Virus record (IMG/VR): IMGVR_UViG_2541047721_000003
From: a virus
Lineage: Duplodnaviria > Heunggongvirae > Uroviricota > Caudoviricetes
DNA length: 26,524 nucleotides
Reading direction: 5' to 3' (one strand)
Below, piece after piece: positions 6,485-24,494 of the stretch. Under the pieces are notes generated by a model. That model was not told the origin of the DNA, made no database searches, and saw nothing but the letters and a program-made list of their open reading frames with translations. The translations under genes were made by a program, and so were the position numbers. Within the stretch, counting starts at the first letter, position 1, and the number at the start of each line of letters is the position of its first letter.

Positions 6485-6873
6485 GCCGGATAGGCTCCGT
6501 GTGGTAACTGAAAATGCGGTCCGTCTTTCAGGGTCTTCCAGTCGCCGCCCCATTCCACCGGAATATTCAGTTCCTGGCTGGCCTGTCTGAATGCTGCTGC
6601 GATTTTTTCGTACAGCGGCCATTCCCATGACACCTGGTTGCCGACATAAGCCACAACATCCACGGCATGCCCTGTGAGATGGCGACTGTTCATGGTCTGG
6701 CTCTTGCCTGTGGTCACGAGCTGCTTCTGACGATAACGACTGCGCAATCCTTCGGTGATACCAAAATCCACTTCCGAGATTTCCAGCGCCCGTCGGGTCA
6801 CTTTCACCAGATCAGGATTTACACCCTGCAAATTCTTTTCGCTCCGGCTGCTGAATTTAAATGTGTTGCTCAT
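6481..6873 (-). CDS. Endolysin, peptidase M15 family (L-alanyl-D-glutamate endopeptidase type)
   Basis: 130 aa. Zinc-ligand style motifs SRHLTGHAVDV and DGPHFQL typical of M15 endolysins. AAGGAGAGG RBS; ATG overlaps the holin stop. Not the P2 K lysozyme type. Confidence 0.8.
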   Translation of the reverse strand: MSNTFKFSSRSEKNLQGVNPDLVKVTRRALEISEVDFGITEGLRSRYRQKQLVTTGKSQTMNSRHLTGHAVDVVAYVGNQVSWEWPLYEKIAAAFRQASQELNIPVEWGGDWKTLKDGPHFQLPHGAYPA

Positions 6874-7193
6874 TCGTTCCTCTCCTTCACCCTGCGATCA
6901 AATATTGCAATAACCTTGTCGCGTGCTTTCTCTGCGCCCATAAAACCGATTGAGGCACCAAAAAACGTCACTGCATCCTCAGGGATCCCGAAGAAGCGCA
7001 GCGACCCGGCCACGGCCATGGCAAGAACGCCGCACGCCAGCGATCCCGTTACGGTCTGAACCAGTGTTCGTCCGTCATAAAGACTCATCAGCGCGGAAAT
7101 GCTGACCGCCGCGCCTACTGCATACACCGTTGGCAGGTGGTCAAAGAGCCACGCAATAACCTGCTCTGTGATCCCTGTTTGAATGGTGCTCAC
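6870..7193 (-). CDS. Holin (putative, about 107 aa, 2-3 TM segments)
   Basis: Directly upstream of the endolysin with stop/start overlap. GTG start at 7193 preceded by GGGGGGAG RBS, just after the X stop. Hydrophobic segments VIAWLFDHLPTVYAVGAAVSISALM and GSLACGVLAMAVAGSL. The 180-aa ORF-track frame extends upstream into X and is not credible. Confidence 0.6.
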   Translation of the reverse strand: MSTIQTGITEQVIAWLFDHLPTVYAVGAAVSISALMSLYDGRTLVQTVTGSLACGVLAMAVAGSLRFFGIPEDAVTFFGASIGFMGAEKARDKVIAIFDRRVKERNE

Positions 7194-7195
7194 TG

Positions 7196-7396
7196 CTACT
7201 CCCCCCACAACTGAATCATTTCTCGTTTCTTCTTCTCCGGCTCCGGCATCTCCACTTCCTGCCCGGCGTCCAGAAATACCTGCTGACAGAGTCCGGGGTT
7301 GGCATCCAGCACCTTTTCGGTGACGCCCTGTGTCGTGCCGTAGTACCGGAAACAGAGCGAATCCACGGTGTCGCCTTCCAGTGCCTTCACTTTCAT
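7196..7396 (-). CDS. X: Tail protein gpX
   Basis: 66 aa from ATG 7396 (MKVKALEGDTVDSLCFRYYG...), matching P2 gpX in size and N-terminal pattern. Overlaps the L stop (TGATG). Confidence 0.8.
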   Translation of the reverse strand: MKVKALEGDTVDSLCFRYYGTTQGVTEKVLDANPGLCQQVFLDAGQEVEMPEPEKKKREMIQLWGE

Positions 7397-7890
7397 CAGC
7401 ACAGCTCCGCAAACATTCGCGGTCGTCCCAGAATGTCAGAGATGGCCCAGCTCACATCGCGCCACAAATCCGATGTCTGTATATCCAGTGCGTCCGCCCG
7501 GCGATCGCCCTTGTCCGTTGTGTCCGCATCGCGGTAACGCTCCAGAATCAGGGCACGTGTGGCGGTATAAACAGCATTGCGCCAGTGCCAGAGATTGACG
7601 CTTTCTCCGTTAATTACGGGTGCCGGAACATCGGCCAGCGTCTGATGGCCAGCCGCCTGCTGTTCCTGCTGCCACGCTTCCAGCTCGCGGGTAACGTGTG
7701 CTATGGCCCCGGTGGCGGTATGCAGCAGGCGGGAGGTGGTCACGCGGCCCGGCAGTCGTACCGCCAGACGCAGCTCACGCAGCACAATATCCGGCCAGAA
7801 TGCACCCGCTGAAATACGGGTATCACCATCATCGGTATCGGTGATGTCGTCCTCTGCGGGGCCGGGGTTGGTTCTGGCAACCATACTCAT
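7396..7890 (-). CDS. L: Head completion / stabilisation protein gpL
   Basis: About 164 aa from ATG 7890 (AGGAG RBS 8 nt upstream); the track's 7899 start is GTG. C-terminal DLWRDV..W..I.G.PR region resembles P2 gpL. Confidence 0.8.
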   Translation of the reverse strand: MSMVARTNPGPAEDDITDTDDGDTRISAGAFWPDIVLRELRLAVRLPGRVTTSRLLHTATGAIAHVTRELEAWQQEQQAAGHQTLADVPAPVINGESVNLWHWRNAVYTATRALILERYRDADTTDKGDRRADALDIQTSDLWRDVSWAISDILGRPRMFAELC

Positions 7891-7991
7891 GGGGTTCACT
7901 CCTGAAAAAATCGGGCGGTGGGTGTGCGGTGTAAACGGTCACGGAGTCAAACCGGAACACCGCGCACGCCGCCCGCTGACGGGGTCAGTCG

Positions 7992-8792
7992 TTAACCGCG
8001 CTTTGCCTTCTGCGTCGCGGTGGTTTTTCGTGTTGCAGGCTTCCGCGTTGTCTTTTTACTTTTGCTGCTTTCGTCCTGCGCCTGCGGTGTGCTGGCATCT
8101 TCTGGTGCGGCTCCGGAATCAGCTTTTTTCAGGGCGCGGGAAAGGGTTGCAATCTCGCGTTTCACACCTGCGTTCGGGTTCAGATGCATCGCTTCGCGCA
8201 GCAGCTTCAGTGATGAGGCCATGCTGTCCGCATCGCTCAGGCCACGGCGGGCAAAGGCGCACGCCTTGCATAATTTGGCGCGCACTTCGTCCGGCATATC
8301 CTGGTTGGCGACAATTTCCCAAAGTGTGTCCAGTGGTTCGATAAAGGCGGATAAATCCGCGTCGGCATCCGTCCCGGCCTGCGTCAGTACCGGGTTGCAG
8401 ATTTCTTCGGTCAGTACCGTGGCGGCAGTACGTCCAAAGTTATCCGGCATGATGAGGTTGTGACGGACCACATATGCACCAATACGCAGCGCCAGCGGAA
8501 GATCGCCGCAGTCAATCGCCCACACCATCAGCGTGGCAATCACTTCGTCCTGCTGCCCGCCGTCAGCCTCCAGCGTTCCCTCAATCCAGCCGGAAAAGTC
8601 CGGCAACAACTCTTTTTTGATGGCGGCTTTCGAGCTTCTGGCCTGTACGCCCTTAAGCCGGGCCTGTGCCAGACGCAGACGATACAGCACCTCTTCATGC
8701 GCGGTACGCGCGGCGTGGTCCACACCTTCATTCGCCCGGCCTGCGCGCTGTGCCATCACGTTCTGCCAGTGTTGTTGTGCAGGAGTAATCAT
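7992..8792 (-). CDS. M: Terminase small (endonuclease) subunit gpM
   Basis: 266 aa, ATG with GGAGAG RBS. Position between N and L as in P2. Basic K/R/T-rich C-terminal tail. Confidence 0.78.
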   Translation of the reverse strand: MITPAQQHWQNVMAQRAGRANEGVDHAARTAHEEVLYRLRLAQARLKGVQARSSKAAIKKELLPDFSGWIEGTLEADGGQQDEVIATLMVWAIDCGDLPLALRIGAYVVRHNLIMPDNFGRTAATVLTEEICNPVLTQAGTDADADLSAFIEPLDTLWEIVANQDMPDEVRAKLCKACAFARRGLSDADSMASSLKLLREAMHLNPNAGVKREIATLSRALKKADSGAAPEDASTPQAQDESSKSKKTTRKPATRKTTATQKAKRG

Positions 8793-10904: not shown

Positions 10905-12656
10905 ATGATTCAGGACGCTTTTGTGCGCCAGCGTGCGCGGCAACTTTACTGGCAGGGTTATCCGCCCGCAGAAATATCACGTCTGATGGGAATAAACCCG
11001 AACACGATTTATGCGTGGAAAAAACGCGACCAGTGGGATGAAACGCCACCCGTGCAGCGTGTCACGCAGTCCATCGATGCGCGCCTCATCCAGCTTACTG
11101 AAAAACAGAATAAAACAGGCGGTGACTTTAAGGAAATAGACCTGCTGACCCGGCAGCTTAAAAAAATGCATGATGGCCAGCCGGATGCGACGGCCACAGG
11201 AAAGAAAGGCCGGGCGAAAAAACTCAAAAATCATTTCACGCCGGAACAGATTGCCGCACTGCGGGAAAAAATCATCAGCAGGCTGGAGTGGCATCAGCGG
11301 GGCTGGTTTGACTCCCTGACCCTTTGCAGGGAAGCCGGGATACGTAACAGGATGATCCTGAAATCCCGACAGATTGGCGCGACCTGGTATTTTGCACAGG
11401 AAGCACTGCTGATGGCGCTGCGTGACGATGTGGCGCAACCTTACCAGCGTAACCAGATTTTTTTGTCTGCGTCGCGTCGTCAGGCGTTCCAGTTTAAAAG
11501 CATTATTCAGAAGGCTGCGGCTGAAGTTGATGTGGAGCTGAAAGGGGGCGATAAAATCATCCTCTCCAACGGCGCAGAGCTGCATTTTCTCGGCACTTCT
11601 GCTGCGTCGGCGCAGTCCTATACGGGCAATTTTTATTTTGATGAATTTTTCTGGGTCAGTCGCTTTGCTGAACTGCGCAAGGTGGCTGGCGCTATGGCAA
11701 CCCTCAGCGGATTGCGGCGCACCTACTTCTCCACGCCATCCACCGAAACGCACGAGGCATACGCCTACTGGAACGGCGACCGCTGGAACGAGAAAAAGGC
11801 CACGCATAAACGCCAGCGTTTTTCTGTGGACTGGAAAACGCTGCATAACGGGCTTATCTGCCCTGACCGGACGTGGCGGCAAATTGTCACGCTGGAAGAT
11901 GTGGTTAATCACGGCTGGAAACACACCGATATCGACGAAATTCGTGATGAAAACACCGAAGACGAGTTCCTCAATCTCTATATGTGTGAGTTTGTCCGCG
12001 AAGGGGAATCGGCATTTAACCTGAATATCCTGATTGGCTGCGGTGTTGACGGATACGACGACTGGAAAGACTGGAAACCTTTTGCTCCCCGCCCGATAGG
12101 GAATCGTCCGGTATGGATTGGGTATGACGCAAACGGCAGCAGTGGAAACGGCGACAGCGGCGCTGTGTCCGTGGTGGTTCCTCCGGCTGTTCCTGGCGGC
12201 CGTTTTCGAACGGTGGAGACGCGACGCGTTCAGGGGCTGGAGTTTGAAGAACAGGCCAGAGTCATTGAAGAGTTCACGTGTCGCTACAACGTGGAACACA
12301 TCGGCATTGATGTGACAGGCGGGAACGGGGAGGCTGTTTATCAGATAGTGAAGCGGTTTTTCCCTGCTGCTATTCCGTACACCTTCACGCTGTCATCAAA
12401 ACGGTCGCTGGTACTGAAAATGCTGCAAATAATGCGTGCCGGGCGGTGGGAATACGATCGCGCCGAACGCGAGTTGGTCGCAGCCTTTAACGCCGTGCGT
12501 AAGGTGAAAACACCGGGCGGCTTTATCACTTACGAAACGGACCGCGCGAGGGGGATCAGCCACGGCGACCTTGCGTGGGCAACCATGCTTGCTGTCATTA
12601 ACGAACCAATTGGCGGCGAAGGAGAAAACGAGCGTTTCACGGTTATGGAGTTCTGA
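10905..12656 (+). CDS. P: Terminase large (ATPase) subunit gpP
   Basis: 583 aa, ATG with GGGGGAG RBS. N-terminal LYWQGYPPAEISRLMG...YAWKKRDQWDE resembles P2 gpP. Divergent from O as in P2. Confidence 0.88.
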   Translation: MIQDAFVRQRARQLYWQGYPPAEISRLMGINPNTIYAWKKRDQWDETPPVQRVTQSIDARLIQLTEKQNKTGGDFKEIDLLTRQLKKMHDGQPDATATGKKGRAKKLKNHFTPEQIAALREKIISRLEWHQRGWFDSLTLCREAGIRNRMILKSRQIGATWYFAQEALLMALRDDVAQPYQRNQIFLSASRRQAFQFKSIIQKAAAEVDVELKGGDKIILSNGAELHFLGTSAASAQSYTGNFYFDEFFWVSRFAELRKVAGAMATLSGLRRTYFSTPSTETHEAYAYWNGDRWNEKKATHKRQRFSVDWKTLHNGLICPDRTWRQIVTLEDVVNHGWKHTDIDEIRDENTEDEFLNLYMCEFVREGESAFNLNILIGCGVDGYDDWKDWKPFAPRPIGNRPVWIGYDANGSSGNGDSGAVSVVVPPAVPGGRFRTVETRRVQGLEFEEQARVIEEFTCRYNVEHIGIDVTGGNGEAVYQIVKRFFPAAIPYTFTLSSKRSLVLKMLQIMRAGRWEYDRAERELVAAFNAVRKVKTPGGFITYETDRARGISHGDLAWATMLAVINEPIGGEGENERFTVMEF

Positions 12657-13702
12657 TGAGCAGAAAAAATAAAAAAGTGCGCATGAGTTCACGCATTGAT
12701 CTCGCTGATGCGCTCAGGAAAGAATCATCGCTCAGTGCATTCACATTTGATGGTCCTTATCGCCTGACCGGGCATGACCTGCTGGACAATATGTACTGTG
12801 CTGATAACGGGCGGTGGTATGAAACCCCGGTGGACTGGTACGGTCTGGCAAGAGCAGCCCGGCAAACGTCCTGGCATCAGTCTGCGCTTTACTTTAAGCG
12901 CAATGTATTACTCGGTTGCTACATCCCGCACCCGCTGCTTTCCCGGCAGGATTTCTCGGCGCTGGCGCTGGACTGGTTTGTGTTCGGTAACGCATTCCTT
13001 GAGCTTCGAAGCAATATGCTCGGCGAACCGCTTAAATTACGGCACGCCCTGGCGAAATATATGCGACGCGGAAGCGATCTTGAATCATGGTGGTATGTGC
13101 AGGATGGCAAGGACGCGTTTCAGTTTCGTCCTGGCAAAGTGTGCCACCTGATGAATCCGGATATTAACCAGGAAATCTACGGCATGCCGGAATATCTTGG
13201 CGCATTACTCTCGGCCAGCCTTTCTCATTCGGCGGACATGTTCAGAAAACTGTACTACGACAACGGATCCCACGCCGGGTGCATCATCTACATCGGTGCA
13301 GCGCAGGTAAACCGCGAAAGCATGGACTCCCTGAAAGAAACGCTACAGGGGGCACGTGGTGGTGGTGCGTTTAAAAACGTGCTCATTCATGCGCCCAACG
13401 GGGGCAAAGAGGGGGTGCAAATTTTGCCGTTCCAGCAGATCACCGCAAAAGATGAATTCATGAATGTTAAGGCGGCATCCCGTGATGATGTGCTGGCTGC
13501 GCACCGCGTTCCGCCGCAACTGATGGGGGCGATGCCGGGCGAAAAAAGTGCGTTTGGCGATGTGGAGAAGGCAGCGCGGGTTTACGCAATTAACGAGCTG
13601 ATGCCCGTCATGGAGGCTATGAAGCACATCAATGACTGGCTTGGCGAAGAGGTGATCCGTTTTAACTCTTATGCTCTTCTTGATGAAAAAACAGCCCCGT
13701 GA
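12656..13702 (+). CDS. Q: Portal protein gpQ
   Basis: 348 aa (P2 gpQ about 344 aa). ATG overlaps the P stop (ATGA). Followed by a bidirectional terminator. Confidence 0.85.
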   Translation: MSRKNKKVRMSSRIDLADALRKESSLSAFTFDGPYRLTGHDLLDNMYCADNGRWYETPVDWYGLARAARQTSWHQSALYFKRNVLLGCYIPHPLLSRQDFSALALDWFVFGNAFLELRSNMLGEPLKLRHALAKYMRRGSDLESWWYVQDGKDAFQFRPGKVCHLMNPDINQEIYGMPEYLGALLSASLSHSADMFRKLYYDNGSHAGCIIYIGAAQVNRESMDSLKETLQGARGGGAFKNVLIHAPNGGKEGVQILPFQQITAKDEFMNVKAASRDDVLAAHRVPPQLMGAMPGEKSAFGDVEKAARVYAINELMPVMEAMKHINDWLGEEVIRFNSYALLDEKTAP

Positions 13703-13718
13703 TGGGGCTGTCCTTTTT
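13691..13718. terminator. Bidirectional intrinsic terminator between convergent Q and the 174-aa gene
   Basis: 8-bp perfect stem ACAGCCCC/GGGGCTGT (13691..13698 / 13704..13711) with loop GTGAT, flanked by an A-run upstream and a T-run downstream. The Q stop codon lies in the loop. Confidence 0.6.
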
Positions 13719-14241
13719 ACCAGAGTTGAACCATTTTCTGGGTGCCGTCAGGCTTGAGATTATCAATTTCAGAGAGAACGTAATATTGAATGGCTTCACA
13801 AACGGTGGTGTAGGGGGAATTACCTTCTTTAAGTGGCACGATATTATTATTAACGCGAACCTGTATTTCATCGTTATACATTGCGATCGAAACAGGCGTG
13901 TGCACGAACGCGACTTCGCCAGGTGTGTCGTCAACCACCGTTTCAATACTAAAAGTCAGTTTTCGCTCATCATTGCTGCCCCGTGCTTTGGGGGTAGCGG
14001 CAGGGATCTGGGATAAAGGCATTCTGCGAAATCCTTCGGCTGCTTCCAGTCCGCATGAAACGTAATGCTGGCGATTACCGTCGCTATCTGTCCAGGTCTG
14101 TGATGGCAGCTCCAGCGAGATTTCATAAGCATCAACAATGCCCTGGGCAAGGCGTACAAGCGGGGTCAGATCTTCATTGCGGCGAAAGCTCTCCTTTACC
14201 TGCTCCCGTTTTTCTCTTAACTGCTTGTAATTAATGACCAT
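13717..14241 (-). CDS. Hypothetical protein, about 174 aa (cargo gene between portal gene and cos-like region)
   Basis: ATG at 14241 with GGAGG RBS 7 nt upstream; the track's 14280 start is GTG. Lower GC than flanking structural genes by eye. No recognisable motif. Confidence 0.5.
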   Translation of the reverse strand: MVINYKQLREKREQVKESFRRNEDLTPLVRLAQGIVDAYEISLELPSQTWTDSDGNRQHYVSCGLEAAEGFRRMPLSQIPAATPKARGSNDERKLTFSIETVVDDTPGEVAFVHTPVSIAMYNDEIQVRVNNNIVPLKEGNSPYTTVCEAIQYYVLSEIDNLKPDGTQKMVQLW

Positions 14242-14340
14242 AAGACAGCCTCCATTGATTTCTTTGCTCGTATTTTGCACTTATGAAGTATGGTCGGCAA
14301 GGTGCCGTATCGCTGACGCGCTTCGCTTGTCTGCTGCTTC

Positions 14341-14369
14341 GCCGGGGCATAAAAAATTTATGCCCCGGC
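14341..14369. other. Perfect 13-bp-stem palindrome GCCGGGGCATAAA-AAA-TTTATGCCCCGGC
   Basis: Read directly from the sequence; 100 bp upstream of the 174-aa gene start. Possible terminator, operator or RNA structure. Confidence 0.4.
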
Positions 14370-14627
14370 TCTCCAGCTCCTGTATCAATCAGATAATTTC
14401 ACGACGCCTTCCAGTTTATCGCCACCATCGACGGTCAGACTCTTACGCAATTCCACCGCGTTGACTGCATGTTCTCGCTGCCTCAGTGCGATTTTGACGG
14501 CCTTACCTTTCACCCCATCAAATCAAAAGCCCTCACGCCTTTTTCATGCTCAGCGTGAGAAATATGGCCATTCTGTTGTGTCTCTGCGACATCGTTCAGG
14601 GAATGCTATTTACCCCCTGAAACGCGG

Positions 14628-14651
14628 GCTGTTCCCCCGTCACCTGCGCGC
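14628..14651. other. Candidate cos (cohesive end) region
   Basis: GCTGTTCCCCCGTCACCTGCGCGC partly resembles the reverse complement of the P2/186 cos core (GGCG(A/T)GGCGGGGAAAGCA, recalled from memory). Orientation relative to Q is as expected. Unverified. Confidence 0.3.
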
Positions 14652-14740
14652 AGAAAAAACGCGTTTTTTTGTGCACGCACGGATCCCTGACGGATCCAGC
14701 CGCCACGCGGGCCGGAAGGGCAAAAAGTCGTTCAAAAAAA

Positions 14741-14767
14741 TTGTGCAAATTTGTGCACTATTGTGCA
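14741..14767. repeat. Three tandem TTGTGCA iterons with exact 10-bp spacing (a fourth copy at about 14669)
   Basis: TTGTGCAAAT TTGTGCACTA TTGTGCATTG read directly. Adjacent to the AAAAAACGCGTTTTTT palindrome (14653..14669) and the ACGGATCC direct repeat. Confidence 0.5.
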
Positions 14768-14775
14768 TTGAAATA

Positions 14776-14797
14776 AACGCCCTGGAAGAGGGCGTTT
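14776..14797 (-). terminator. Intrinsic terminator of the minus-strand operon ending at 14808
   Basis: Stem AACGCCCT/AGGGCGTT with loop GGAAG, about 10 nt after the stop of the 112-aa gene, followed on the minus strand by a T-rich tract. Confidence 0.55.
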
Positions 14798-14807
14798 TGG
14801 CTCATTT

Positions 14808-15146
14808 CTATAGCTTTGATGCAGGCTGGGCTAGGTCTCCTTTGATGCCAGTGTTTACAACCTGACAAGCCTCTTTGAGTACCCAGTCAACAGCGTCTTT
14901 CCATGCTCCGGTTTCGGCTGGCGGATTCTCACGCTTTACCAGTTCATAGAATCGTACTGCTCTAACCAGTCCATCTGACGGTTTTGCCTGTAGTGCAGCC
15001 TGAGCTATGCGGTATGCCTGGAGCATACGGGCGTCGTTGATATCCATTCCGAACGGAATTTCTGATGATTGTGATTCTGCATCTTCAAGCCTGGCAATTT
15101 CTTTACGTAAAAAGTATTTCAACTCTTGTTTTTGTTTTCTGTTCAT
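14808..15146 (-). CDS. Hypothetical protein, 112 aa (co-operonic with the ClpX-ZBD-like gene)
   Basis: ATG at 15146 overlaps the stop of the upstream gene (ATGA). Predicted largely helical and charged. No recognisable motif. Confidence 0.55.
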
Positions 15147-15475
15147 GCGTTTTTTCCCTTTTTGTCTGTCACTTCTCTCCTGATAATTTCATTGCACAAA
15201 TCCACGCACTCATTGCAGATGCAAACAGACGGTCCGGCAATCACCTTTGTGACTTCGTACTGAGATTTATTGCAGAAGCTGCAATAAATCGTCTCCTCGC
15301 CTGAAGTCCATGTTTTGCTGGTTTCGCCAGACATCAGTTGTTTGAGGTCTTTTTCACGACGAAGAACTATCTGGCCACATTCAGCTATTTTTTGGATGTT
15401 GACATTTTCTTCTTTCGCCAGCGCTTCCATCCGCTCAATCAGTCGCTGCGCTTTTTCTCTGTCAATGTGTTGCAT
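15143..15475 (-). CDS. Small protein with C-terminal ClpX-type C4 zinc-binding domain (zf-C4_ClpX-like), N-terminal coiled-coil-like region
   Basis: 110 aa, ATG at 15475 with AAGGGGGA RBS. Segment [35 protein letters not shown] closely parallels the E. coli ClpX N-terminal zinc-binding domain ([32 protein letters not shown], from memory), including the CxxC...CxxC spacing. Confidence 0.7.
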
Positions 15476-15508
15476 TGTGTCCCCCTTGTTTATGTTCCCG
15501 GATTAAAG

Positions 15509-15532
15509 TCATCAGGGCGGATGCGCCCTGAT
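15509..15532. other. Hairpin CATCAGGGCG-GATG-CGCCCTGATG between parR and the ClpX-ZBD-like gene
   Basis: 10-bp perfect inverted repeat read directly. A third copy of CGCCCTGAT lies at 15553..15561. Confidence 0.4.
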
Positions 15533-15538
15533 GTTGTG

Positions 15539-15850
15539 TTATTCGGGAAATAACGCCCTGATATTTCCGGCCATCCGACTGGTTATCTGTGAGGTTGGTA
15601 CTGGCTGTGACGCGGGGCGTTCTGTCCTGGTTTGTGTCACTGATAACGCCTCATCGTCAGCCCATGCAGCCAGTCGGTAAGCCTCTGCCGGATTCATTTT
15701 CAGAAGTGCCAGCCCGGCCAGAAAAGCCACACGTTGGCCGCTTTTGCGGGCTTCTGGTGTAAGGCTGTCCAGCCAGGTGCATGCTTCGCCTTCGTTCTTG
15801 ACGGCGGCGGGCTTCAGATAGAAACTTATCCGTCTGGTTGGTGTCGTCAT
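15539..15850 (-). CDS. parR: ParR-like centromere-binding adaptor (RHH)
   Basis: 103 aa from ATG 15850 (AAGGAG RBS), 4 nt after the parM stop. RRISFYLKP...AFLAGLAL...ALFPE parallels plasmid R1 ParR (RTIAFKLNP...ALTAGLAL...SLFPKE, from memory). Confidence 0.68.
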   Translation of the reverse strand: MTTPTRRISFYLKPAAVKNEGEACTWLDSLTPEARKSGQRVAFLAGLALLKMNPAEAYRLAAWADDEALSVTQTRTERPASQPVPTSQITSRMAGNIRALFPE

Positions 15851-15854
15851 TGGT

Positions 15855-16814
15855 TTACTCCTTGTCCATTGCGTACAGCCCATTAACCAGAGCAAACTGT
15901 GGCACCCCGTCCGCGATGAAAGTCGCATTAACTCCGCAGGCTTCGCGGATAGCGGGTGCCACAATCTCCGCCCCGCCACCGACAACCATCACCCGCCCGT
16001 AACCCGAAAAACCCGCCAGCGCGCGGATCACTCGTTGTTTCAGTGTTTCTTCCTTTTCACGAATAACCGCCATCAGGCTGTCGTAATGCGCGTCATTGTG
16101 GATGTGCTGGCGCAGCCAGGCTTCATCATGGCGATGTTCGATAATGGTATTGGCGATGTGGTGACTGGTGCGCATACCGTTAGTGGCCATCACCGACAGT
16201 ACGGCATCGGCCATCAGAGAAACGCCTACGTGTGGATCGCAAAACACCTGGCTGATACCTGCCAGTTGCCCCTGAACCTTTGCCACATCCAGCGTGGTTC
16301 CGCCCAAATCCACAATCAGCAGGGATTCAAACGGACTCATGTCAGCCAGTGCCTTAAAGCCAGCCGGAATGGATTCAGGCATAACCCGCACGTTACGGAT
16401 AGTGAATGCTTCGCCGTTCTGGTACTCCACCGGGCGCATAACGTTCGCTTTTTTGCGGTTGATGTTGGCCATGTCCGGCTGTGCGTTTGTGTCGAAATAC
16501 TCGCTCAGTGGCAGGGTGACAACCACATCCACCTCCTGTGGCGTGATGCCTGATTTGACCAGCGCGTGATGAATGGCAATTACATTCACATCGCTGTACT
16601 GGTATTGCGTGTCGGTCGTCTGGACAAATCGAACGCTGACCGGATCAAAACCATAGCGCACGCCATCAAGCATGTAGTTTGCGGGCTGCATGCCACCGAA
16701 CGGCGCAGACCATTCCGATTTGAAGCTGTTCGGGCTGATGGCGTTGCGGCGTTCGCCGTTCTCAGTCCATGCCAGCTTGATGTTGGTGGAGCCGTCGTCG
16801 ATACAAATTTTCAT
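15855..16814 (-). CDS. parM: ParM/StbA-like actin-type segregation ATPase
   Basis: 319 aa. MKICIDDGSTNIKLAW N-terminus and segments ISPNSFK, YSDVNV..HHAL, VMPE.IPAG, LLI.DLGGTTLD, GVSL, V.GGGAE, LVNG closely parallel R1 ParM (about 320 aa, from memory). AAGGA RBS. Confidence 0.85.
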   Translation of the reverse strand: MKICIDDGSTNIKLAWTENGERRNAISPNSFKSEWSAPFGGMQPANYMLDGVRYGFDPVSVRFVQTTDTQYQYSDVNVIAIHHALVKSGITPQEVDVVVTLPLSEYFDTNAQPDMANINRKKANVMRPVEYQNGEAFTIRNVRVMPESIPAGFKALADMSPFESLLIVDLGGTTLDVAKVQGQLAGISQVFCDPHVGVSLMADAVLSVMATNGMRTSHHIANTIIEHRHDEAWLRQHIHNDAHYDSLMAVIREKEETLKQRVIRALAGFSGYGRVMVVGGGAEIVAPAIREACGVNATFIADGVPQFALVNGLYAMDKE

Positions 16815-16845
16815 GTCGATTTTCCTTATGTTGATTAATTAATCG

Positions 16846-16956
16846 TTTACGGGGTTTTTAAATCCCGTTTTTGCCTGTTTTATGCGCGCTTCATATATCG
16901 CGGCGCGTTTTTTGCTCATTTACGGGTTTTGTGAATCCCGTTTCTGTCTGTTTTTT
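16846..16956. repeat. parC-like region: two about 38-bp direct repeats flanking a putative promoter
   Basis: TTTACGGGGTTTTTAAATCCCGTTTTTGCCTGTTTTAT (16846..16883) and TTTACGGGTTTTGTGAATCCCGTTTCTGTCTGTTTTTT (16919..16956), each with an ACGGG...CCCGT inverted sub-element. Lies immediately upstream of parM and overlaps the last codons of A. Confidence 0.5.
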
Positions 16957-19713
16957 GTTTCCACTGGTCAGGCTACCCCGCAGCAGGTCTGCTTTGCGGC
17001 GGGCGCGTTCAGTGGTTTCACTGATTCTCTGTGCGTGCTCTGCGTCACGGATGGCGCGCAGCATGTCAGAAAGCACGGTAACGGGGGTTTTCATGGTGTT
17101 CTGGTCCTGCTGAAGTGTGGATGCCAGGCGTGCGGCGGCTTCGGGGTCTGATGCCCCCAGCTGTTCCAGATAGCCGGCGACCGGGTTATGGCGGATCTCC
17201 GTGCTGCTTACGCCGTGATTACGGCTCAGGCGCTGCCAGAGCTGCGTGATTCGGCTGTCCGGGCGGGTATCCGGTTTGCGTACAATTTCAAATCCCTGCG
17301 GTGCAATGATGCTGCCGTCAACGTACAGGCTGCCGCCCCGTAACAGGTGCTGCATCTGCTGTTCACCGATATGCAGGCCGAGAGATTCGGCAGACTCCCG
17401 CCATTCTTTAGCGAGTAATTCGTGGTTATCAGGCAAAGGCCGCTGCTGTTTGCGGCTCTGTGTCCAGCTCTGCATTTCATCACTGCTGTTTTTTGCCTGT
17501 TTATCATGAAGCGAACGCATCAGCGCCCGGCGTTCGTGCCGTTTCAGTGAGCGCATCCATTCGTTCACTTCAACGCCATCAGGGAGCTGCGGCCACGGTG
17601 CTGGCCGTTCTTCCGGCTGTTCTGCCCCGTTGTTGTTCGTTTCCTGTACACGGGGACAGTTATTGCCACGAGTCCAAGGGGCGGCAGGGCCGCCCTGAAG
17701 GTCAAAACCATTTTCGCGGGCGCTGTCTTCCGTTTCCGGTTTACGTCTTACCAGTTTCCAGTTATCCGGATGCGTGCACACACGGGAGGATTCCCCGATG
17801 AGTGGTGACCAGATCCCGTAAATCTGTACGCTCTGTTCGCCGTAATCATTCAGCTCATCTGCGAGGTCGTAGGCGGTGCGAATCAGGTAGTCTTTGCGTG
17901 GAACAAGTACGCCGCCCTGTTTTTCAATGTAGGTGGCAAAACACCCGGCATCGGCGGCAGCGAGTACCGCATCCATTGCGTCATCTTTCAGTCGTTGCGG
18001 GCCTTCCGGGTTGCGTGCCATCTGGCTGGCAAGGCGGCGCAGTTCACGCCACACCTGACGGGAGGGGATGCCAAAGAACTGGAACTGGCGGACCCGATGA
18101 AGGCGCGCCCAGCCGATGGCGCGCTCCACACTCTCGGCCATTGATTTTCCGGTTTCGTGGTCAACGCGTGGCTTGCCCGTTTTCGGGTCGATGCCATCCA
18201 CGGCGCGGCTGTCCAGGTTCTTTCCGATGTAGGTCGCGATATAGCTGGTTGGTGTGCCTTTTGAGCCGTCGACGTACTCCGCTTTAAAACGCGGAGTTAT
18301 GTCATCGCCCAGCTCGTGGCGGTCTTCCTGAATGGCAATATCGCAGACGTGGGACACGATGGTTTCAATCTCGTCCGGATGTGCAAAGACCATCATATGC
18401 CAGTGCACAGTGCCGTCATGGTGAGGCTCCACCGTGCGGATGCCATACCAGCGAAGACCGTCGCGGTTCAGTTTTTTGCGGACCGCCGCAAAAAAAGTGT
18501 TAACCAGGTAATCGCTGGAGTCGCGCATGGTGGCCCCGTTCCATTTGGGATTCGGATGACCGTTCTCCGTTGTTGCGTGGTATTTTGACGGGCAGGTAAC
18601 GGTCAGAAACACCGCTCTGTCGCTACGGGCTTCGGCCAGAAGTTCCAGTCCCTTCATGGTGGCCATCATTTCTGCCTTACGGTGAACCGGGTTACTTACT
18701 CCCGCGTAATACACTGTCTCGAGATCAATCGTGAACCCGTCTTCATTTTCCAGCATGAAACTTTTCAGGAAATCGCGTGTTTTCTCGCGCTGTGCGCGAA
18801 ACTCGCTTAACGCGTCCTGGCTCAGATAGGGCGATGTTTTTCTGGAAACCAGACAGGCGGCGCGGAGTTGTTCTTCCCGCCACTCGCAACGTAACAGCCA
18901 CAGTTTGCGTTTCCACCATTCCGCACAGGTCAGGCGAAGGATTGCGCCCGGCAGCAGTTCTGTGTCCGGTTCGTTCCTCCGGTCTTTGTCTGTTGTCAGT
19001 GCGTCATAATGCGGAGGCATGGCGTGCAAGTGTAACGCCATGCGGGCTAGCATCTGATACGCCTTCAGCGTTACATCCATGGTCAGCTCGCCATCAGTCG
19101 CGCCAAAACCATCGCAGAGTTTTTCGAAGGTGCTGCTGAACATCGCCGCCGTCATGGTGGCCAGCGTCTGTATCTGGTGTTTGTTGAGTTGCGGCAGGTA
19201 AAGCAAATCGTCCAGGCGTTCGCGTCCGGCAAGGGACCGATAACCCGGTGTCAGCCAACGGCTGTCGGTGCGGTCCAGACGTACGAATATTTTGCGCAGG
19301 GTTCCGCGCGCGTAGCGTTCAGCCTGCCAGCTCTTTTTGCCTTTCTGGCGATCGGCTTCCTGTTTTTTGCGCAGGAAGGAGAGGTGGCGAATAAGCGGAT
19401 CGCGCAGATAGGACGGCAGCAGGCGCAGCGAGGCCATGGCTTCATCCACCGCGCCGCGTGCCTGTTTTCTGGCGTCTCCTGCCAGTGTGATGGTTTTGTC
19501 CTGTTTTTCCTGTGCGTCCAGGTTTTTATTAATCAGGTTGCCCAGCGGCGTTGCGGAGAACGCCGCATCAGCCATTTCCTGGCGGCGCTCGTTCTCTGCC
19601 CGGTAGGCATCCAGCCAGGAGGAAAGCGCGGATTCAGGTGCGGGGATCCCCGTTCCTTCACGCCCCACTGCGTGGCGCGGTTGTTGCCAGTCCCTGATGT
19701 ACTCTGCCGTCAT
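16891..19713 (-). CDS. A: Replication initiation endonuclease gpA (rolling-circle, HUH superfamily)
   Basis: 940 aa. HUH-type motif VHWHMMVF and paired catalytic tyrosines Y-x3-Y (SYIATYIGK, about residues 491/495 by manual count), as in the P2 A protein. Longer than P2 gpA (about 761 aa). Confidence 0.85.
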   Translation of the reverse strand: MTAEYIRDWQQPRHAVGREGTGIPAPESALSSWLDAYRAENERRQEMADAAFSATPLGNLINKNLDAQEKQDKTITLAGDARKQARGAVDEAMASLRLLPSYLRDPLIRHLSFLRKKQEADRQKGKKSWQAERYARGTLRKIFVRLDRTDSRWLTPGYRSLAGRERLDDLLYLPQLNKHQIQTLATMTAAMFSSTFEKLCDGFGATDGELTMDVTLKAYQMLARMALHLHAMPPHYDALTTDKDRRNEPDTELLPGAILRLTCAEWWKRKLWLLRCEWREEQLRAACLVSRKTSPYLSQDALSEFRAQREKTRDFLKSFMLENEDGFTIDLETVYYAGVSNPVHRKAEMMATMKGLELLAEARSDRAVFLTVTCPSKYHATTENGHPNPKWNGATMRDSSDYLVNTFFAAVRKKLNRDGLRWYGIRTVEPHHDGTVHWHMMVFAHPDEIETIVSHVCDIAIQEDRHELGDDITPRFKAEYVDGSKGTPTSYIATYIGKNLDSRAVDGIDPKTGKPRVDHETGKSMAESVERAIGWARLHRVRQFQFFGIPSRQVWRELRRLASQMARNPEGPQRLKDDAMDAVLAAADAGCFATYIEKQGGVLVPRKDYLIRTAYDLADELNDYGEQSVQIYGIWSPLIGESSRVCTHPDNWKLVRRKPETEDSARENGFDLQGGPAAPWTRGNNCPRVQETNNNGAEQPEERPAPWPQLPDGVEVNEWMRSLKRHERRALMRSLHDKQAKNSSDEMQSWTQSRKQQRPLPDNHELLAKEWRESAESLGLHIGEQQMQHLLRGGSLYVDGSIIAPQGFEIVRKPDTRPDSRITQLWQRLSRNHGVSSTEIRHNPVAGYLEQLGASDPEAAARLASTLQQDQNTMKTPVTVLSDMLRAIRDAEHAQRISETTERARRKADLLRGSLTSGNKKQTETGFTKPVNEQKTRRDI

Positions 19714-19719
19714 AGTGAT

Positions 19720-20085
19720 TTACTTCGTCATGCCATTCAGGGTGTCGCGGCAGACTGTAGCCAGCCGCTGAATTTCCAGCACGGTGTCTTCTGTGTCGGC
19801 ATGGCGATGTGTGATGCGGATGCTGTCGGCAATCACATCGACGATTGCAGAGGATGGGCGCTGGTAAATGCCAATAACGGACGGGGTGCCACCTTCAATG
19901 CGGTAAAGCCTGTAATTTCCCTCGTGGCTGTCAATCATGTAGCGACCATCAATAACAATCTTTCCGTCAGCGAGCTGCGGTACAGGCAGGGATTTCAGGT
20001 ACATGTCATAACGATCACGCACGCGAGCGGCAAGATCACGTTCTGTGTTGAGCAGGTATTCAAGAAAGTCGTTGGCGAGAATCAT
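19720..20085 (-). CDS. Hypothetical early protein, 121 aa
   Basis: ATG start; stop 7 nt upstream of the A start. No recognisable motif. Confidence 0.5.
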   Translation of the reverse strand: MILANDFLEYLLNTERDLAARVRDRYDMYLKSLPVPQLADGKIVIDGRYMIDSHEGNYRLYRIEGGTPSVIGIYQRPSSAIVDVIADSIRITHRHADTEDTVLEIQRLATVCRDTLNGMTK

Positions 20086-20157
20086 TGCGGCAATCCTCTT
20101 GTTACAGATGTGCGAAGGCCTCCCGCCGCAAGGTGCAGGAAAGGCCCGGAACAGGAA

Positions 20158-20388
20158 TTAATGGAGTTTGTTTTGCTGCTGGAAGAGTTGTTGCAGCTCG
20201 CGCAGATCATCCGCCAGATAGCTGAAAACAGAGGCGGAATAGATGTTCGATAGCGCGTGGCTGCGCTCATGCAGCATATTGATGTGCATGATTTGCGCGA
20301 CGCGTGATGCGCGGAAAAGTCTACGGTTGATTTCAGTCTGGATGTGACGACGCTCCGCGATAGCGCGGCGCTGTTTGCGGTTTGCCAT
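20158..20388 (-). CDS. Hypothetical early protein, 76 aa (basic N-terminus)
   Basis: ATG at 20388 with AAGGGG RBS. N-terminal MANRKQRRAIAERR suggests nucleic-acid binding. Unverified. Confidence 0.45.
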   Translation of the reverse strand: MANRKQRRAIAERRHIQTEINRRLFRASRVAQIMHINMLHERSHALSNIYSASVFSYLADDLRELQQLFQQQNKLH

Positions 20389-20565
20389 GGTGTGGCCCCT
20401 TGTGTAGTAAGTTGTGAAAACTCACCATCCAGAGCTGCGAAACTGTGGGTGGCGAGACGTACGAGGTTCGCAGTACCGGCTACACAAGAACCCGGCCCGA
20501 CCGAAGTCGGCCCCGTACGCCCCGCCATAATTCTGACGCGAAAAAAACGTGGCAATACAGTACGC

Positions 20566-20588
20566 ACAAAAAAACCGCTGGCGCGGTT
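20566..20588 (-). terminator. Intrinsic terminator (minus strand)
   Basis: Stem AACCGC/GCGGTT with a 4-nt loop, followed on the minus strand by a run of 8 T (A-run 20567..20574 on plus). Confidence 0.55.
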
Positions 20589-20725
20589 GTGCGCTTGTGT
20601 AGTCAGCAGGCTGCGAAACCCGGCACCCGTTTTATGAGGTGCAGCGAGAATGTAACCTGACTGATTGCGGCATGGCAAGCGGTTTTTTTGTGAGAACGGC
20701 ATACTAAAAAAATCCTGATACTGCT

Positions 20726-20756: not shown

Positions 20757-21587
20757 TTACTTCACCGGAACAAACGGAACAGCGGTGTTGCTGGTCATGT
20801 ATTGCGGCAGCGTGCCGTTCCATTTGTTGATTGCTTCCAGCTCCATAACGCCGGGATTCTGGCGCAGAGCTTCACCGCGTAAACGAATGGCGTCGGCTTC
20901 AGCCTGGGCTTTTGTGCGAATGGCATCGGCTTGTCCGGCAGCTTCTGCGCGCAGCATGTTGGCTTCAGCTTCGCGTTGCTTGACTTCCTGTTCACGTTGC
21001 AGGGTTTTCTGGTTTGCCGTGACTTTGGCATTAATGCTGTCGATAACGGTTGGTGGGTATTCCGGCTTACCCACATAAGAGAGGCTCATTACCTGAATGC
21101 CGATAGGTGTCATTTCTGCCTGAATGTCTTTAAGTGCTGAATCCAGCAGTTCAGACTTGCCACCGTCGATAAATTTATCGGTGGTCATTTTGCTGGCCAG
21201 TCGGTTGAGTGCGTCGGCGATCTTCTGGCGCAGGTCAGTGTCGGTAATGTCGTCCACGCCTTTGCGGTAGGTCTGAAACACCGTGGTAACTTTGGATGGA
21301 TCAACTTTGTAGGCCACGCCGATGTGATAGCCGATGGTTGTGCCGTCACTCATCTGGAAGTTGAACGGCTCATCGTAAGTCTTCATTTGTTTGAAAGTCG
21401 GGAAGATGTAAACCTCTGTATTCCAGCCTGTCCAGTAGCGGCCAACGCCAACTACTTCGCCGACGCCTTTGTCGTCGCCCAGTTTGTTGACTTTGATTCC
21501 CACATTACCTGGCTCAACGCGATCGCAACCAACCAGCAGGATGGCGGCAAAAAGCGGGAGAATCTGAAAGAGTTTGAATTTCTTCAT
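20757..21587 (-). CDS. SPFH/band-7 (stomatin/prohibitin/HflKC-like) lipoprotein
   Basis: 276 aa. N-terminal signal with lipobox (ILLVGC). Central region consistent with an SPFH domain. C-terminal Ala/Glu/Gln/Arg-rich coiled coil (QREQEVKQREAEANMLRAEAAGQADAIRTKAQAEADAIRLRGEA) typical of HflK/HflC/YqiK-type proteins. ATG overlaps the stop of the upstream small gene. Confidence 0.78.
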   Translation of the reverse strand: MKKFKLFQILPLFAAILLVGCDRVEPGNVGIKVNKLGDDKGVGEVVGVGRYWTGWNTEVYIFPTFKQMKTYDEPFNFQMSDGTTIGYHIGVAYKVDPSKVTTVFQTYRKGVDDITDTDLRQKIADALNRLASKMTTDKFIDGGKSELLDSALKDIQAEMTPIGIQVMSLSYVGKPEYPPTVIDSINAKVTANQKTLQREQEVKQREAEANMLRAEAAGQADAIRTKAQAEADAIRLRGEALRQNPGVMELEAINKWNGTLPQYMTSNTAVPFVPVK

Positions 21588-22225: not shown

Positions 22226-22636
22226 CTATGCGTTAAATACGGTGCACTGTGCGTCATCAATGAATGCGACTTGAGAGCGCTCTATCAGGCGGAGATTTGT
22301 CAGAATTTCTGATTCCCTTATGGGGTGAGGAGTGATCAGGTATTTATCCTGTAACCCGGCGATAATGGTGTATCGCTGTAGCTCCGAGCCAATTGTGTAA
22401 ATAAGGCGTCCGGTGTTAGACAAATCCAGTCCGGTGACGGGTTGTGTTCTGAGAACCGCCAGTTCAGCATCCTGTTTTGCGATAATTTCGGCTGCTTCTG
22501 CCGTGACTCTTGCGACTATCAGTGTGTGGGTTGCGACGTCCATATGATTATTTGCTATGGCTTTTTTCGCTACTACGTTTTCTGTCTTTGAAATTTCTTT
22601 CAGTGCTCTGATGATACCTTCTTCTTTTGCGTGCAT
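22226..22636 (-). CDS. Hypothetical early protein, 136 aa
   Basis: ATG at 22636 with GGAGAT RBS. No recognisable motif. Confidence 0.5.
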   Translation of the reverse strand: MHAKEEGIIRALKEISKTENVVAKKAIANNHMDVATHTLIVARVTAEAAEIIAKQDAELAVLRTQPVTGLDLSNTGRLIYTIGSELQRYTIIAGLQDKYLITPHPIRESEILTNLRLIERSQVAFIDDAQCTVFNA

Positions 22637-22704
22637 TTTTGTATCTCCGTTATTTGCGTGTGCGAATACCTCCGTTAATACGGATGGTTTTCTCGTTTTC
22701 TTAT

Positions 22705-22842
22705 TTAATTTGATGTTTTATTTGTATCGTTATTCACCAGTGAAAAACGTTCAATCTTTTTTACTGAATGAATAATTCGCATAATTCCAATAGCGCAGGC
22801 CACCGAAATAATCAGAACAAGCCATGAGATAAATATACTCAT
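22705..22842 (-). CDS. Small hydrophobic peptide, 45 aa (single predicted TM helix)
   Basis: Not in the ORF track (too short). ATG at 22842 overlaps the stop of the upstream gene (ATGA). Manual translation MSIFISWLVLIISVACAIGIMRIIHSVKKIERFSLVNNDTNKTSN. AT-rich. Confidence 0.3.
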   Translation of the reverse strand: MSIFISWLVLIISVACAIGIMRIIHSVKKIERFSLVNNDTNKTSN

Positions 22843-23081
22843 GCGATATTCCCCAGCTTATACGGTTCAATATGTTCCCCGCATTCTGCGGCACAGATCA
22901 GCTCGGAAAGTTCGTTAAGTGCATCCAGATCATCAGCGTAAAAAGCCACGTCATACAGACTCCGGATTGCCCTGGTCAATGAGTCACGGGCTGCACGTTC
23001 AGCATGAGCGCCTGATGCACTTAAGCGAAAATAAAAACGCTCAAGTGCTTTGTTAATGAGAGTTTTATATTCTTTGCCCAT
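22839..23081 (-). CDS. Hypothetical early protein, about 80 aa
   Basis: ATG at 23081, 12 nt after the upstream stop; the track's 23132 start is TTG. Confidence 0.45.
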   Translation of the reverse strand: MGKEYKTLINKALERFYFRLSASGAHAERAARDSLTRAIRSLYDVAFYADDLDALNELSELICAAECGEHIEPYKLGNIA

Positions 23082-23092
23082 CGCAACGCCCT

Positions 23093-23371
23093 TTAATCTG
23101 CTTTCTGAATTTCTGCTTCTGAATCCATACAAATAATTTCGATATAGGGTTCATCGCCATTAGTCTTACGTGCTTTTTCCGCTTCGCTAATGATTTCGTG
23201 TACAGTCTGGTACGGAAGTTCTACGGTCAGGCGCGTGCCGTTCAGATAAACGTAAGTAGCTGCATTTTTTTCGGATGGAACGACTCCATCAATAGCTGAT
23301 GCGCGTAATAACAGTTCACCGCGAAAATCAATAAAACGAATAAATACACCTTGTGCATGCTCTTTGGTCAT
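23093..23371 (-). CDS. Hypothetical early protein, about 92 aa
   Basis: ATG at 23371 (MTKEHAQGVFIRF...), 11 nt after the upstream stop; the track's 23431 start is TTG. Confidence 0.45.
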   Translation of the reverse strand: MTKEHAQGVFIRFIDFRGELLLRASAIDGVVPSEKNAATYVYLNGTRLTVELPYQTVHEIISEAEKARKTNGDEPYIEIICMDSEAEIQKAD

Positions 23372-23381
23372 AAAGCACCTG

Positions 23382-23732
23382 TTATAAATCAGCCTGTTTA
23401 ATAAAACTTTGTCCGCGAAGCAGACGATCAACTGTGCGAAGTGCTTCGTACAATGTGAAATCCTGCCCGAACTGATTGTCGCCGTTGCTCAGTGCAAAAA
23501 TGCGGTTTCCGGTAAATGGGTTGCGCTGGCATCTGTGAACCACGATTCCTGCTTTTTCAATCAGCCAAGTGTGTTCACCAATTTGTTTTACTGGGTAGCC
23601 ATCCGGCGTTGCGTGTGTTTCGCTCAGGCTGTAGCGAGAGTTGCTACGTGATGCACTGGTAGCGAAACGGTTAGCATGGCGTTCCGCACCGTTGCGGAAG
23701 CGCTGCTGTGAAGAATTGCGCTGTAGTTTCAT
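23382..23732 (-). CDS. Hypothetical early protein, 116 aa
   Basis: ATG at 23732. First gene after the AT-rich insert, in the position where P2/186-type phages carry small early regulators. Confidence 0.5.
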   Translation of the reverse strand: MKLQRNSSQQRFRNGAERHANRFATSASRSNSRYSLSETHATPDGYPVKQIGEHTWLIEKAGIVVHRCQRNPFTGNRIFALSNGDNQFGQDFTLYEALRTVDRLLRGQSFIKQADL

Positions 23733-23869
23733 ATTAAAACTCTGTACCTTCGGTAAGGTGTACTCGTGTCACCTTGTATTGATTTGTGGTATTTTTTTTG
23801 TGTGTCTAGGACTTGGACTGGCCGGTTCAGGTCCTGGCTTATGTTTAATTAAATTGTTAAGAGGTTTTC

Positions 23870-24061
23870 ATGTCAGAAGATAAAAAAGTTGTTAATTTGT
23901 TGAGTGAACTTAGTGCTGCTCTGGATAACATTAACCCTCCCAGGGTAAAAACGACGGGTGATAAAGACGCATTAAACACAGAGATTCATATATTACTGGC
24001 GTTAGTAACTGACAAAATTCAGCGTAAATACCCACCTGTCACACAACTGGTTGATTTTTAA
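23870..24061 (+). CDS. Hypothetical protein, 63 aa (plus strand, convergent with the 140-aa gene)
   Basis: ATG at 23870 with AAGAGG RBS 5 nt upstream. AT-rich. Own upstream region 23733..23869. Confidence 0.45.
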   Translation: MSEDKKVVNLLSELSAALDNINPPRVKTTGDKDALNTEIHILLALVTDKIQRKYPPVTQLVDF

Positions 24062-24067
24062 TTTGAT

Positions 24068-24490: not shown

Positions 24491-24494
24491 ACGA

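Follow-up and report, generated by a model that had tools for sequence, protein, structure and literature searches.

Two independently assorting cargo slots beside a putative cos block, and a backbone parMR cassette, in a P88-like Escherichia coli prophage

What occupies the interval between the replication gene A and the portal gene Q of a P2-like prophage that lacks the P2 anti-phage genes old and tin? We addressed this question for the IMG/VR virus record IMGVR_UViG_2541047721_000003, a 26,524-nucleotide stretch of Caudoviricetes DNA (the window). An initial annotation had described its A-Q junction as a single cargo locus of four unrelated accessory modules. Open reading frame (ORF) and domain scans identified the genes of a P2-family prophage (capsid N, scaffold O, terminase P, portal Q, and gpA), and megablast placed the window in the P88 group (genus Xuanwuvirus, Peduoviridae), with PhiR44_2 and P88 aligning over 91-94% of positions 12600-19800 at ∼97-98% identity. 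From Q to A, the interval contains orf174, a non-coding block, orf112, a gene for a ClpX zinc finger only, parR, and parM. The genes, cos-like segment, zinc-finger gene pair, and parMR cassette named in the initial annotation are thus all present between Q and A, at or near the positions it gave them, and it was also right that old and tin are missing, as PADLOC, Pfam, and NCBIfam returned no match of the OLD or Tin type. We conclude that the interval is very probably the cos-adjacent accessory region of a P88-like E. coli prophage, built in the order A-parM-parR, slot 2, cos block, slot 1, Q. Its features are given below, with gene functions as predicted from sequence comparison (ZBD, zinc-binding domain).

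12656..13702, plus strand: portal gene Q, the left anchor (Phage_portal, phrog_68)
13678..14312: variable slot 1, 635 bp, with the alternative 3' end of Q, a bidirectional terminator, orf174, and its upstream region (block map)
13686..13716: bidirectional terminator hairpin common to the convergent Q and orf174, core at 13691-13711 (hairpin scans)
13717..14241, minus strand: orf174, a moron-type orphan gene (protein identical to WP_000236495)
14313..14767: conserved non-coding block of 455 bp, the putative cos block (93-99% identical in all relatives)
14341..14369: hairpin with 13-bp arms, AAAAAACGCGTTTTTT, the probable Q terminator in relatives without orf174 (hairpin scan)
14623..14767: putative cos core, 145 bp, with GCTGTTCCCCCGTCACCTGCGCGC, TTTTTGTGCA, and the 35-nt TCAAAAAAATTGTGCAAATTTGTGCACTATTGTGCA (cross-lineage conservation, heptamer clustering)
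14768..15535: variable slot 2, 768 bp, on the A side of cos (block map)
14775..14797: terminator hairpin closing the minus-strand operon before cos (hairpin scan)
14808..15146, minus strand: orf112, with a predicted coiled-coil N terminus and an Ea22/ead-like C-terminal segment (phrog_26213, phrog_660, phrog_250)
15143..15475, minus strand: ZBD protein of 110 amino acids, helical in its N-terminal half, with a C4 zinc-binding domain of the ClpX type and no AAA+ (zf-C4_ClpX, E=2.9e-16)
15510..15533: hairpin with a 10-bp stem at the boundary between slot 2 and backbone, terminator-like on the plus strand only
15539..15850, minus strand: parR, StbB-type adaptor, lineage backbone (Plasmid_stab_B, E=1.1e-23; phrog_2515, E=1.9e-57)
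15855..16814, minus strand: parM, actin-like ATPase, lineage backbone (StbA_N, E=7e-82; ParM C-terminal domain, E=1.1e-68; both full length)
16843..16957: candidate parC, two 42-nt direct repeats 73 bp apart, at 16843-16884 and 16916-16957 (repeat and dyad search)
16891..19713, minus strand: replication endonuclease gpA, 940 amino acids, the right anchor (Phage_GPA, E=2e-128)

The two-slot structure emerged from a block map made by blastn of positions 13401-17100 against eight phage relatives, to which four more genomes were added (P884B11, E. coli 1190, PCN033, and FDAARGOS_1288). The eight relatives have sharp breakpoints in common at 13677/13678, 14312/14313, 14767/14768, and 15535/15536, and the four added genomes as well as the circular record NZ_CP148288.1 match the same map. 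Sequence is conserved in all relatives up to 13677, from 14313 to 14767, and from 15536 onward through parR, parM, and A. The alignment therefore bears out the variable content predicted by the initial annotation for orf174 and for the orf112-ZBD pair, but not for the 455-bp cos block or parR-parM, which are conserved throughout. Slot 1 has just two states, the 635-bp cassette or a 21-bp sequence, the latter in P88, Shae_phiSM, 520873, 503458, Chuche, and FDAARGOS_1288. Slot 2 has at least eight alternatives among 13 genomes, including orf112 with the ZBD gene, the ZBD gene with XF1762-family and other genes, the ZBD gene with Phd/Doc, a DUF4760 pair, memP, and single ORFs of 270, 408, 591, and 807 nt. 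Because all four combinations of slot states occur (the window; P88 and FDAARGOS_1288; 569R5 and an ST131 prophage; Shae_phiSM, Chuche, and 520873), the slots assort independently. GC content likewise separates cargo from backbone, at 47.6% in slot 1 and 45.8% in slot 2 versus 55% in parR and parM, 57% in A, and 53.1% across the window. The cargo would be exchanged separately in each slot, most likely by homologous recombination in the conserved flanks, that is, the 3' end of Q, the 455-bp block, and the end of parR.

These features are those of a known hotspot. Rousset et al. (2022, Cell Host Microbe, PMC9122126) counted 1,650 arrangements among 18,150 loci in the stretch next to cos, from gpA to gpQ, of P2-like phages in E. 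coli; this hotspot is also credited to Odegrip et al. 2006, as cited in PMC9122126, and was again treated as the main P2 defence hotspot in a 2026 study (PMC13586616). Here, the interval is flanked by Phage_portal and Phage_GPA genes, its content differs among near-identical phages, and it directly adjoins the putative cos block at 14313-14767. Table S5A of the 2022 study lists the arrangement [quoted passage not shown] with WP_001163776, WP_001080490, and WP_000236495 (PMC9122126). These accessions correspond to the ZBD protein, orf112, and orf174 of the window, respectively, since FDAARGOS_1288, whose slot 2 is 100% identical to that of the window, carries the first two and strain 1190 carries the third without an amino acid difference. 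The position (from A to Q, beside cos), variable content, and five-gene arrangement are therefore the same as in the hotspot of Rousset et al., which was described as single, whereas the window resolves into two independently assorting slots around cos, with parMR fixed in the P88 lineage. In the supplementary text of that study, "ClpX" occurs in the arrangement table only, with no sign there of the slot genes being assayed, and the P88 and phiSM papers contain nothing on cos or parMR function. With the hotspot and the five-gene arrangement already in the literature, the locus is real but ordinary and adds little in itself; what is added here is the two-slot anatomy, the placement of parMR in the backbone, a P88-type cos core present on a satellite-like element too, a candidate parC, and a hypothesis that the ZBD protein is a ClpX decoy.

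Among sequenced phages, Enterobacteria phage P88 (NC_026014) has the same A-parM-parR-ZBD-orf112-cos-Q order as the window, and PhiR44_2, 569R5, and Shae_phiSM are relatives. The differences lie in the slots: P88 is without orf174, its slot 1 being the 21-bp form, and PhiR44_2 contains orf174 and, in slot 2, two additional genes. In P2 itself, tin and old were confirmed between A and cos, together with orf91, in a cos-proximal position on the A side that is equivalent to slot 2, although the genes share no homology. A promoter near cos drives P2 old and tin in the direction of A; by contrast, the ZBD pair of the window is codirectional with A, and P2 has nothing between cos and Q, where the window has orf174. 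Population counts in 5,426 complete E. coli genomes gave 397 with orf174, 112 with the ZBD gene, and 72 with the full orf112-ZBD pair; 72 genomes have the whole interval at ≥80% coverage. P88-like prophages occur in about a quarter of these genomes, so that effects of cos-flanking cargo would be widespread, and the two-slot anatomy helps to set cargo boundaries in automated screens.

Slot 1 begins inside Q. The last eight Q codons (from 13678) belong to the variable segment, with the C terminus reading ...SYALLDEKTAP in genomes with orf174 and ...PYALLDTQPTS in those without it, and a TGA left over at 14314-14316 matches the aligned position of the Q stop codon in the orf174-less relatives. 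The orf174 gene has a GGAGG ribosome-binding site 7 nt upstream of its ATG and matches phrog_5091 (E=1.8e-67), with no Pfam, NCBIfam, or PADLOC match. Its initial description as AT-rich holds only mildly (GC, 47.8% versus 53.1% for the window), and the ClpX-ZBD pair is lower still at 44-46%. Relatives of orf174 occupy classic moron slots of unrelated prophages, namely, the gap between antiterminator Q and holin and a tail module, and, in P2-like prophages of Salmonella and Trabulsiella, they also flank cos on one side or the other. Based on its presence or absence between close relatives (635 versus 21 bp) and its deviating GC content, orf174 qualifies as a moron. It would be a self-contained one, having a strong ribosome-binding site of its own, a site that weakly resembles a promoter, a shared bidirectional terminator, and lower GC content, that arrived together with the alternative 3' end of Q. 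The product is predicted to be a small non-enzymatic alpha/beta protein, most likely acting by binding another protein. It may serve in exclusion, anti-defence, or host modulation; a role in phage-phage conflict is plausible, at somewhat less than an even chance.

In slot 2, the C-terminal 50-70 amino acids of orf112 match phrog_660 and phrog_26213, and no Pfam, NCBIfam, PADLOC, or PDB match was found for this protein. Bases 14836-14975, a 140-nt segment encoding its C-terminal half, share 88-93% identity both with genes of unrelated phages (T7-like vB_EcoP_PAS61, lambdoid mEp460, and others) and with E. coli genes annotated ead/Ea22-like, a probable sign of a recent mosaic joint or exchange. 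The two slot 2 genes are not an obligate pair, as the ZBD gene of strain 1190 adjoins Phd/Doc without orf112. Toxin-antitoxin pairs recur beside cargo: the Phd/Doc pair of E. coli 1190 lies with its ZBD gene at 2351-3604 of the locus extracted from that strain, and HicAB and Phd/Fic adjoin an orf174 homologue in Trabulsiella (6001-8053 of the corresponding locus).

The ZBD protein is identical to the E. coli ClpX ZBD (1ovx) at 30 of 48 residues (E=3.8e-18), and all four Cys ligands are invariant. The C4 fold is common to the ClpX ZBD (PDB 1OVX, 2DS5-8) and the 110-amino-acid protein, but the latter stands alone, with a helical N-terminal extension and no AAA+ ATPase, and so cannot unfold substrates. 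The NCBIfam clpX models cover only profile positions 3-52, far below the cut-off, consistent with the absence of an AAA+ module. By itself, the N-domain of ClpX forms dimers; it also recognises the substrates MuA and FtsZ along with adaptors, SspB among them, and Mu transposase remodelling requires ClpX to act through this domain (PMC5415555). Literature searches found no stand-alone phage ClpX-ZBD proteins. With the ZBD gene, slot 2 would add to the early A-parMR operon a protein that, in its C-terminal half, closely copies the N-terminal ZBD of host ClpX. Because the protein has a ClpX-like ZBD and no AAA+ module, and because the N-domain dimerises and binds clients, the most economical hypothesis is a dimeric decoy that competes for N-domain-dependent substrates and adaptors of ClpX, which we put forward tentatively. 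A more specific version appears doubtful, in which a host-derived decoy, by presenting a near-native ZBD or dimerising through it, would titrate MuA, lambda O, SspB, and FtsZ-type clients from ClpX and thereby exclude ClpX-dependent phages (Mu-like, lambdoid) or stabilise a P88 or toxin-antitoxin protein. In one relative the ZBD gene lies right beside Phd/Doc, and the prototype antitoxin of that system, from P1, is a ClpXP substrate. If true, the decoy would be a new prophage route to rewire host proteolysis through a captured substrate-recognition domain alone, and a stand-alone ClpX-ZBD protein is in any case a cheap, testable candidate modulator of host proteolysis.

Could orf174, the ZBD pair, or both instead be anti-phage defence or superinfection-exclusion genes, functional analogues of old and tin? 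They are located in a hotspot from which more than one-third of the systems cloned by Rousset et al. (2022, PMC9122126) proved active. Both orf174 and the pair are polymorphic for presence and low in GC, and among the other cargos found nearby are Phd/Doc, HicAB, and an S8 peptidase accompanied by an AAA ATPase; the requirement of the ClpX N-domain for Mu transposase remodelling (PMC5415555) points the same way. The genes of the window are not among the three active systems of Rousset et al. or known defence families, and PADLOC recognised no anti-phage system in the interval. On balance, we consider the defence explanation possible but improbable.

The cos-adjacent accessory region as we read it includes a partition cassette that behaves as backbone. 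In all 12 relatives, parMR is present and always begins 76 bp after A. The ratios of nonsynonymous to synonymous substitution (dN/dS) measured against relatives are 0.06-0.11 for parM and 0.2-0.33 for parR. Neither P2 nor phiT5282H has the cassette, and it is likewise missing from the Salmonella and Trabulsiella prophages; Rousset et al. (2022, PMC9122126) noted a partition system in roughly one P2-like phage in four. Given this conservation, its backbone GC content, and purifying selection, parMR is a functional part of the lineage backbone and accessory only across the wider P2 family. A scan of the gap between A and parM detected neither a minus-strand T-run terminator nor a promoter, and parMR appears to be cotranscribed with the replication gene A. 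Each repeat of the candidate parC is conserved in relatives and contains the dyad ACGGG-N10-CCCGT (16849-16868 and 16922-16941), of which the window has no other exact copy; most relatives have it as ACGGGATT-N4-AATCCCGT. The second 42-nt repeat lies inside the 3' end of A.

Together, parMR and the two-dyad candidate parC would form a type II DNA segregation machine fixed in the P88 lineage. The full-length ParM and ParR matches and the parM-parR order are as in type II ParMRC of R1 and StbAB, and the repeated dyads just upstream of parM would correspond to parC. Unlike R1 ParMRC, the cassette of the window is on an integrating phage, has two candidate ParR sites, and is probably transcribed with a replication gene and not from an autoregulated parC promoter. 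A second parallel is AlpAC-alpS of the Corynebacterium prophage CGP3, likewise a prophage-encoded actin-like protein with a DNA-binding adaptor, which acts on excised phage DNA during replication and not in plasmid inheritance (Donovan et al. 2015, PMC4446434). As parMR belongs to another actin-like family and another host, the likeness to P88-like phages is by analogy. We give an even chance to the proposal that parMR acts on the circular phage genome, positioning or segregating it once the phage has infected or been induced, or while it is now and then carried as an episome, with a stable plasmid prophage being unlikely.

Rousset et al. (2022, PMC9122126) suggested that such systems let phages persist as plasmid prophages. 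The ParM and ParR domains are genuine, the parM gene has ∼66% nucleotide identity with parM of conjugative plasmids, and in one complete assembly an entire P88-like genome forms a closed circle of 34.5 kb (NZ_CP148288.1). However, of the 1,451 places where parMR was found, in 1,303 of the 5,426 complete E. coli genomes, 1,449 are chromosomal; an integrase is encoded both in the window (25517-end) and in the circular record; parMR seems to be cotranscribed with the lytic/early gene A, with no promoter of its own found; and the circle could be merely excised, replicating phage DNA. We therefore regard plasmid persistence as rather unlikely. Since the prophages are almost always chromosomal, a role on the excised or incoming circle is favoured over stable plasmid lysogeny, and a cassette that is fixed and under selection in such overwhelmingly chromosomal prophages argues against simple plasmid maintenance and towards the handling of these circles. 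The circular record itself (pZ1323PEC0009-2, 34,461 bp), deposited as a plasmid, carries an integrase, cox, A, parMR, and structural genes, and it represents either a prophage in episomal form or phage DNA that was excised and replicating.

The same data bear on the proposal of the initial annotation that the whole A-Q interval is one cargo locus in which four independently acquired modules replace old and tin. Across the P2 family, parMR is indeed missing from the P2, phiT5282H, Salmonella, and Trabulsiella genomes, and Rousset et al. (2022, PMC9122126) counted it among the hotspot contents. Within the lineage, however, both parMR and the cos block are invariant in 12 of 12 relatives, the former with backbone GC content, purifying selection, and a constant distance from A, and none of the relatives compared was a P88-like genome (same A, same cos) that lacked or had replaced it. 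The block, for its part, would be a cis-acting backbone element and no cargo. The interval is thus variable as proposed, in slots 1 and 2, but it does not consist of four accessory modules. The two terminators that had been said to bracket it do exist (13691-13711 and 14775-14797) and enclose only orf174 and the cos block. A single replacement locus is accordingly very unlikely, and the arrangement of two slots around a conserved cos block is retained.

The cos block was found in 1,142 of the 5,426 complete E. coli genomes. The cos-like segment (∼14290-14800) does contain iterons and palindromes, as initially annotated. The palindromes of the segment include the 13-bp-arm hairpin and GGATCC-N5-GGATCC, and the heptamer TTGTGCA occurs at 14669, 14741, 14751, and 14761, so that 4 of its 10 copies in the window fall inside 100 bp, three of them in exact 10-bp phase. 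These three are held in the 35-nt TCAAAAAAATTGTGCAAATTTGTGCACTATTGTGCA, which is nearly invariant across all five lineages or elements compared. The core is the only part of the block that is kept, at 75-81% identity, in Enterobacter phiT5282H (Novemvirus) and in the Salmonella and Trabulsiella P2-like prophages, where in each case it has Q on one side and the cargo on the other. Placed on the window, the linear P884B11 record has its termini at 14722|14723, inside the core, and the cut sites may lie there. The P88 lineage appears to have a cos core of its own, one also found on a satellite-like element.

That element is integrated beside hpt/can in E. coli OkiPb01677 (NZ_AP042483.1, 145478-155622). 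It encodes MazEF, a 423-amino-acid P2-family capsid protein, Ogr/Delta, an integrase, and an 889-amino-acid Toprim primase, and it carries an 80%-identical P88-type cos core (at 5001-5145 of the extracted locus). Beyond the core, it shares no other DNA with the phage. Based on this gene content, it looks like a P4-like satellite with its own capsid gene. Satellites have only the packaging signal in common with their helpers (Rousset et al. 2022, PMC9122126), and for this reason the presence of the core in a satellite-like element supports the cos assignment independently. A wider occurrence of the core in P4-like satellites of E. coli was considered and rejected, as divergent copies are few (32 of 1,149 records below 90% identity) and the one inspected was satellite-like.

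That the 455-bp block is a regulatory or RNA element and not cos is highly improbable: it is dissimilar to P2 cos, its putative ends come from a sequence record, and its region folds somewhat better than shuffled controls (z = -2.0), but Rfam matched nothing in the interval (13650-15600) either at the gathering threshold or at E≤1, the block lies where P2 has cos, it is retained between Q and cargo in distant P2-like lineages and in the satellite-like element, and one linear phage record, P884B11, has its termini inside it.

Several observations weigh against our interpretation of the interval as a cos-adjacent region with functional cargo. The P2 cohesive-end pattern (≤3 mismatches) had 0 matches, and blastn of the cos block against the P2 ends found nothing; with no likeness to P2 cos, the assignment rests on conservation, position, the satellite, and the termini of one record. 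The candidate parC has two sites only, compared with the ten iterons of plasmid R1 parC. The promoter scan gave nothing above threshold upstream of orf174 or parM, and the best manual candidate for orf174, TTGCCG-17-CAAAAT, matches at only 8 of 12 positions. PADLOC, Pfam-defence, and NCBIfam returned no match for any slot gene, leaving a conflict role without homology support. The ZBD allele of the window has Cys at residue 85 (SVCICNEC), where E. coli ClpX and all eight other family members have Tyr (SVYIC), and this extra Cys beside a zinc ligand could alter binding. Finally, the slot map is based on 13 genomes read in detail and on aggregate counts.

Outside the interval, terminase gene P occupies 10905-12656 on the plus strand (ORF/domain scan). 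The gpA protein is longer than its P2 counterpart, with 940 amino acids versus the 761 implied by the 2,286-nt P2 A gene. Its Phage_GPA domain is confined to residues 179-503, and the matches of the long C-terminal region are to phrog_6857 and phrog_14885, two families without an assigned function. In the early region, minus-strand positions 20445-20642, within an Ash-family ORF (20082-20702), match the Rfam C4 antisense RNA (83.2 bits) adjoining the isrK Hfq-binding RNA (65.2 bits). This pair resembles a P1/P7-type module for RNA-based immunity or antirepressor control, here in the early region of a P2-like phage, and a "derepression protein" occupies the same position in some relatives. The early operon also encodes, at 20757-21587 on the minus strand, a 276-amino-acid SPFH/Band-7 protein (E=4e-31) with weak similarity to HflK/HflC, the gene for which is annotated "lipoprotein/serine protease" in P88. 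The lowest GC content (38-45%) is at 22501-24500, in the stretch from the early genes to the integrase end, which may be a further accessory region; a minor P2 hotspot between integrase and primase was described in a 2026 survey.

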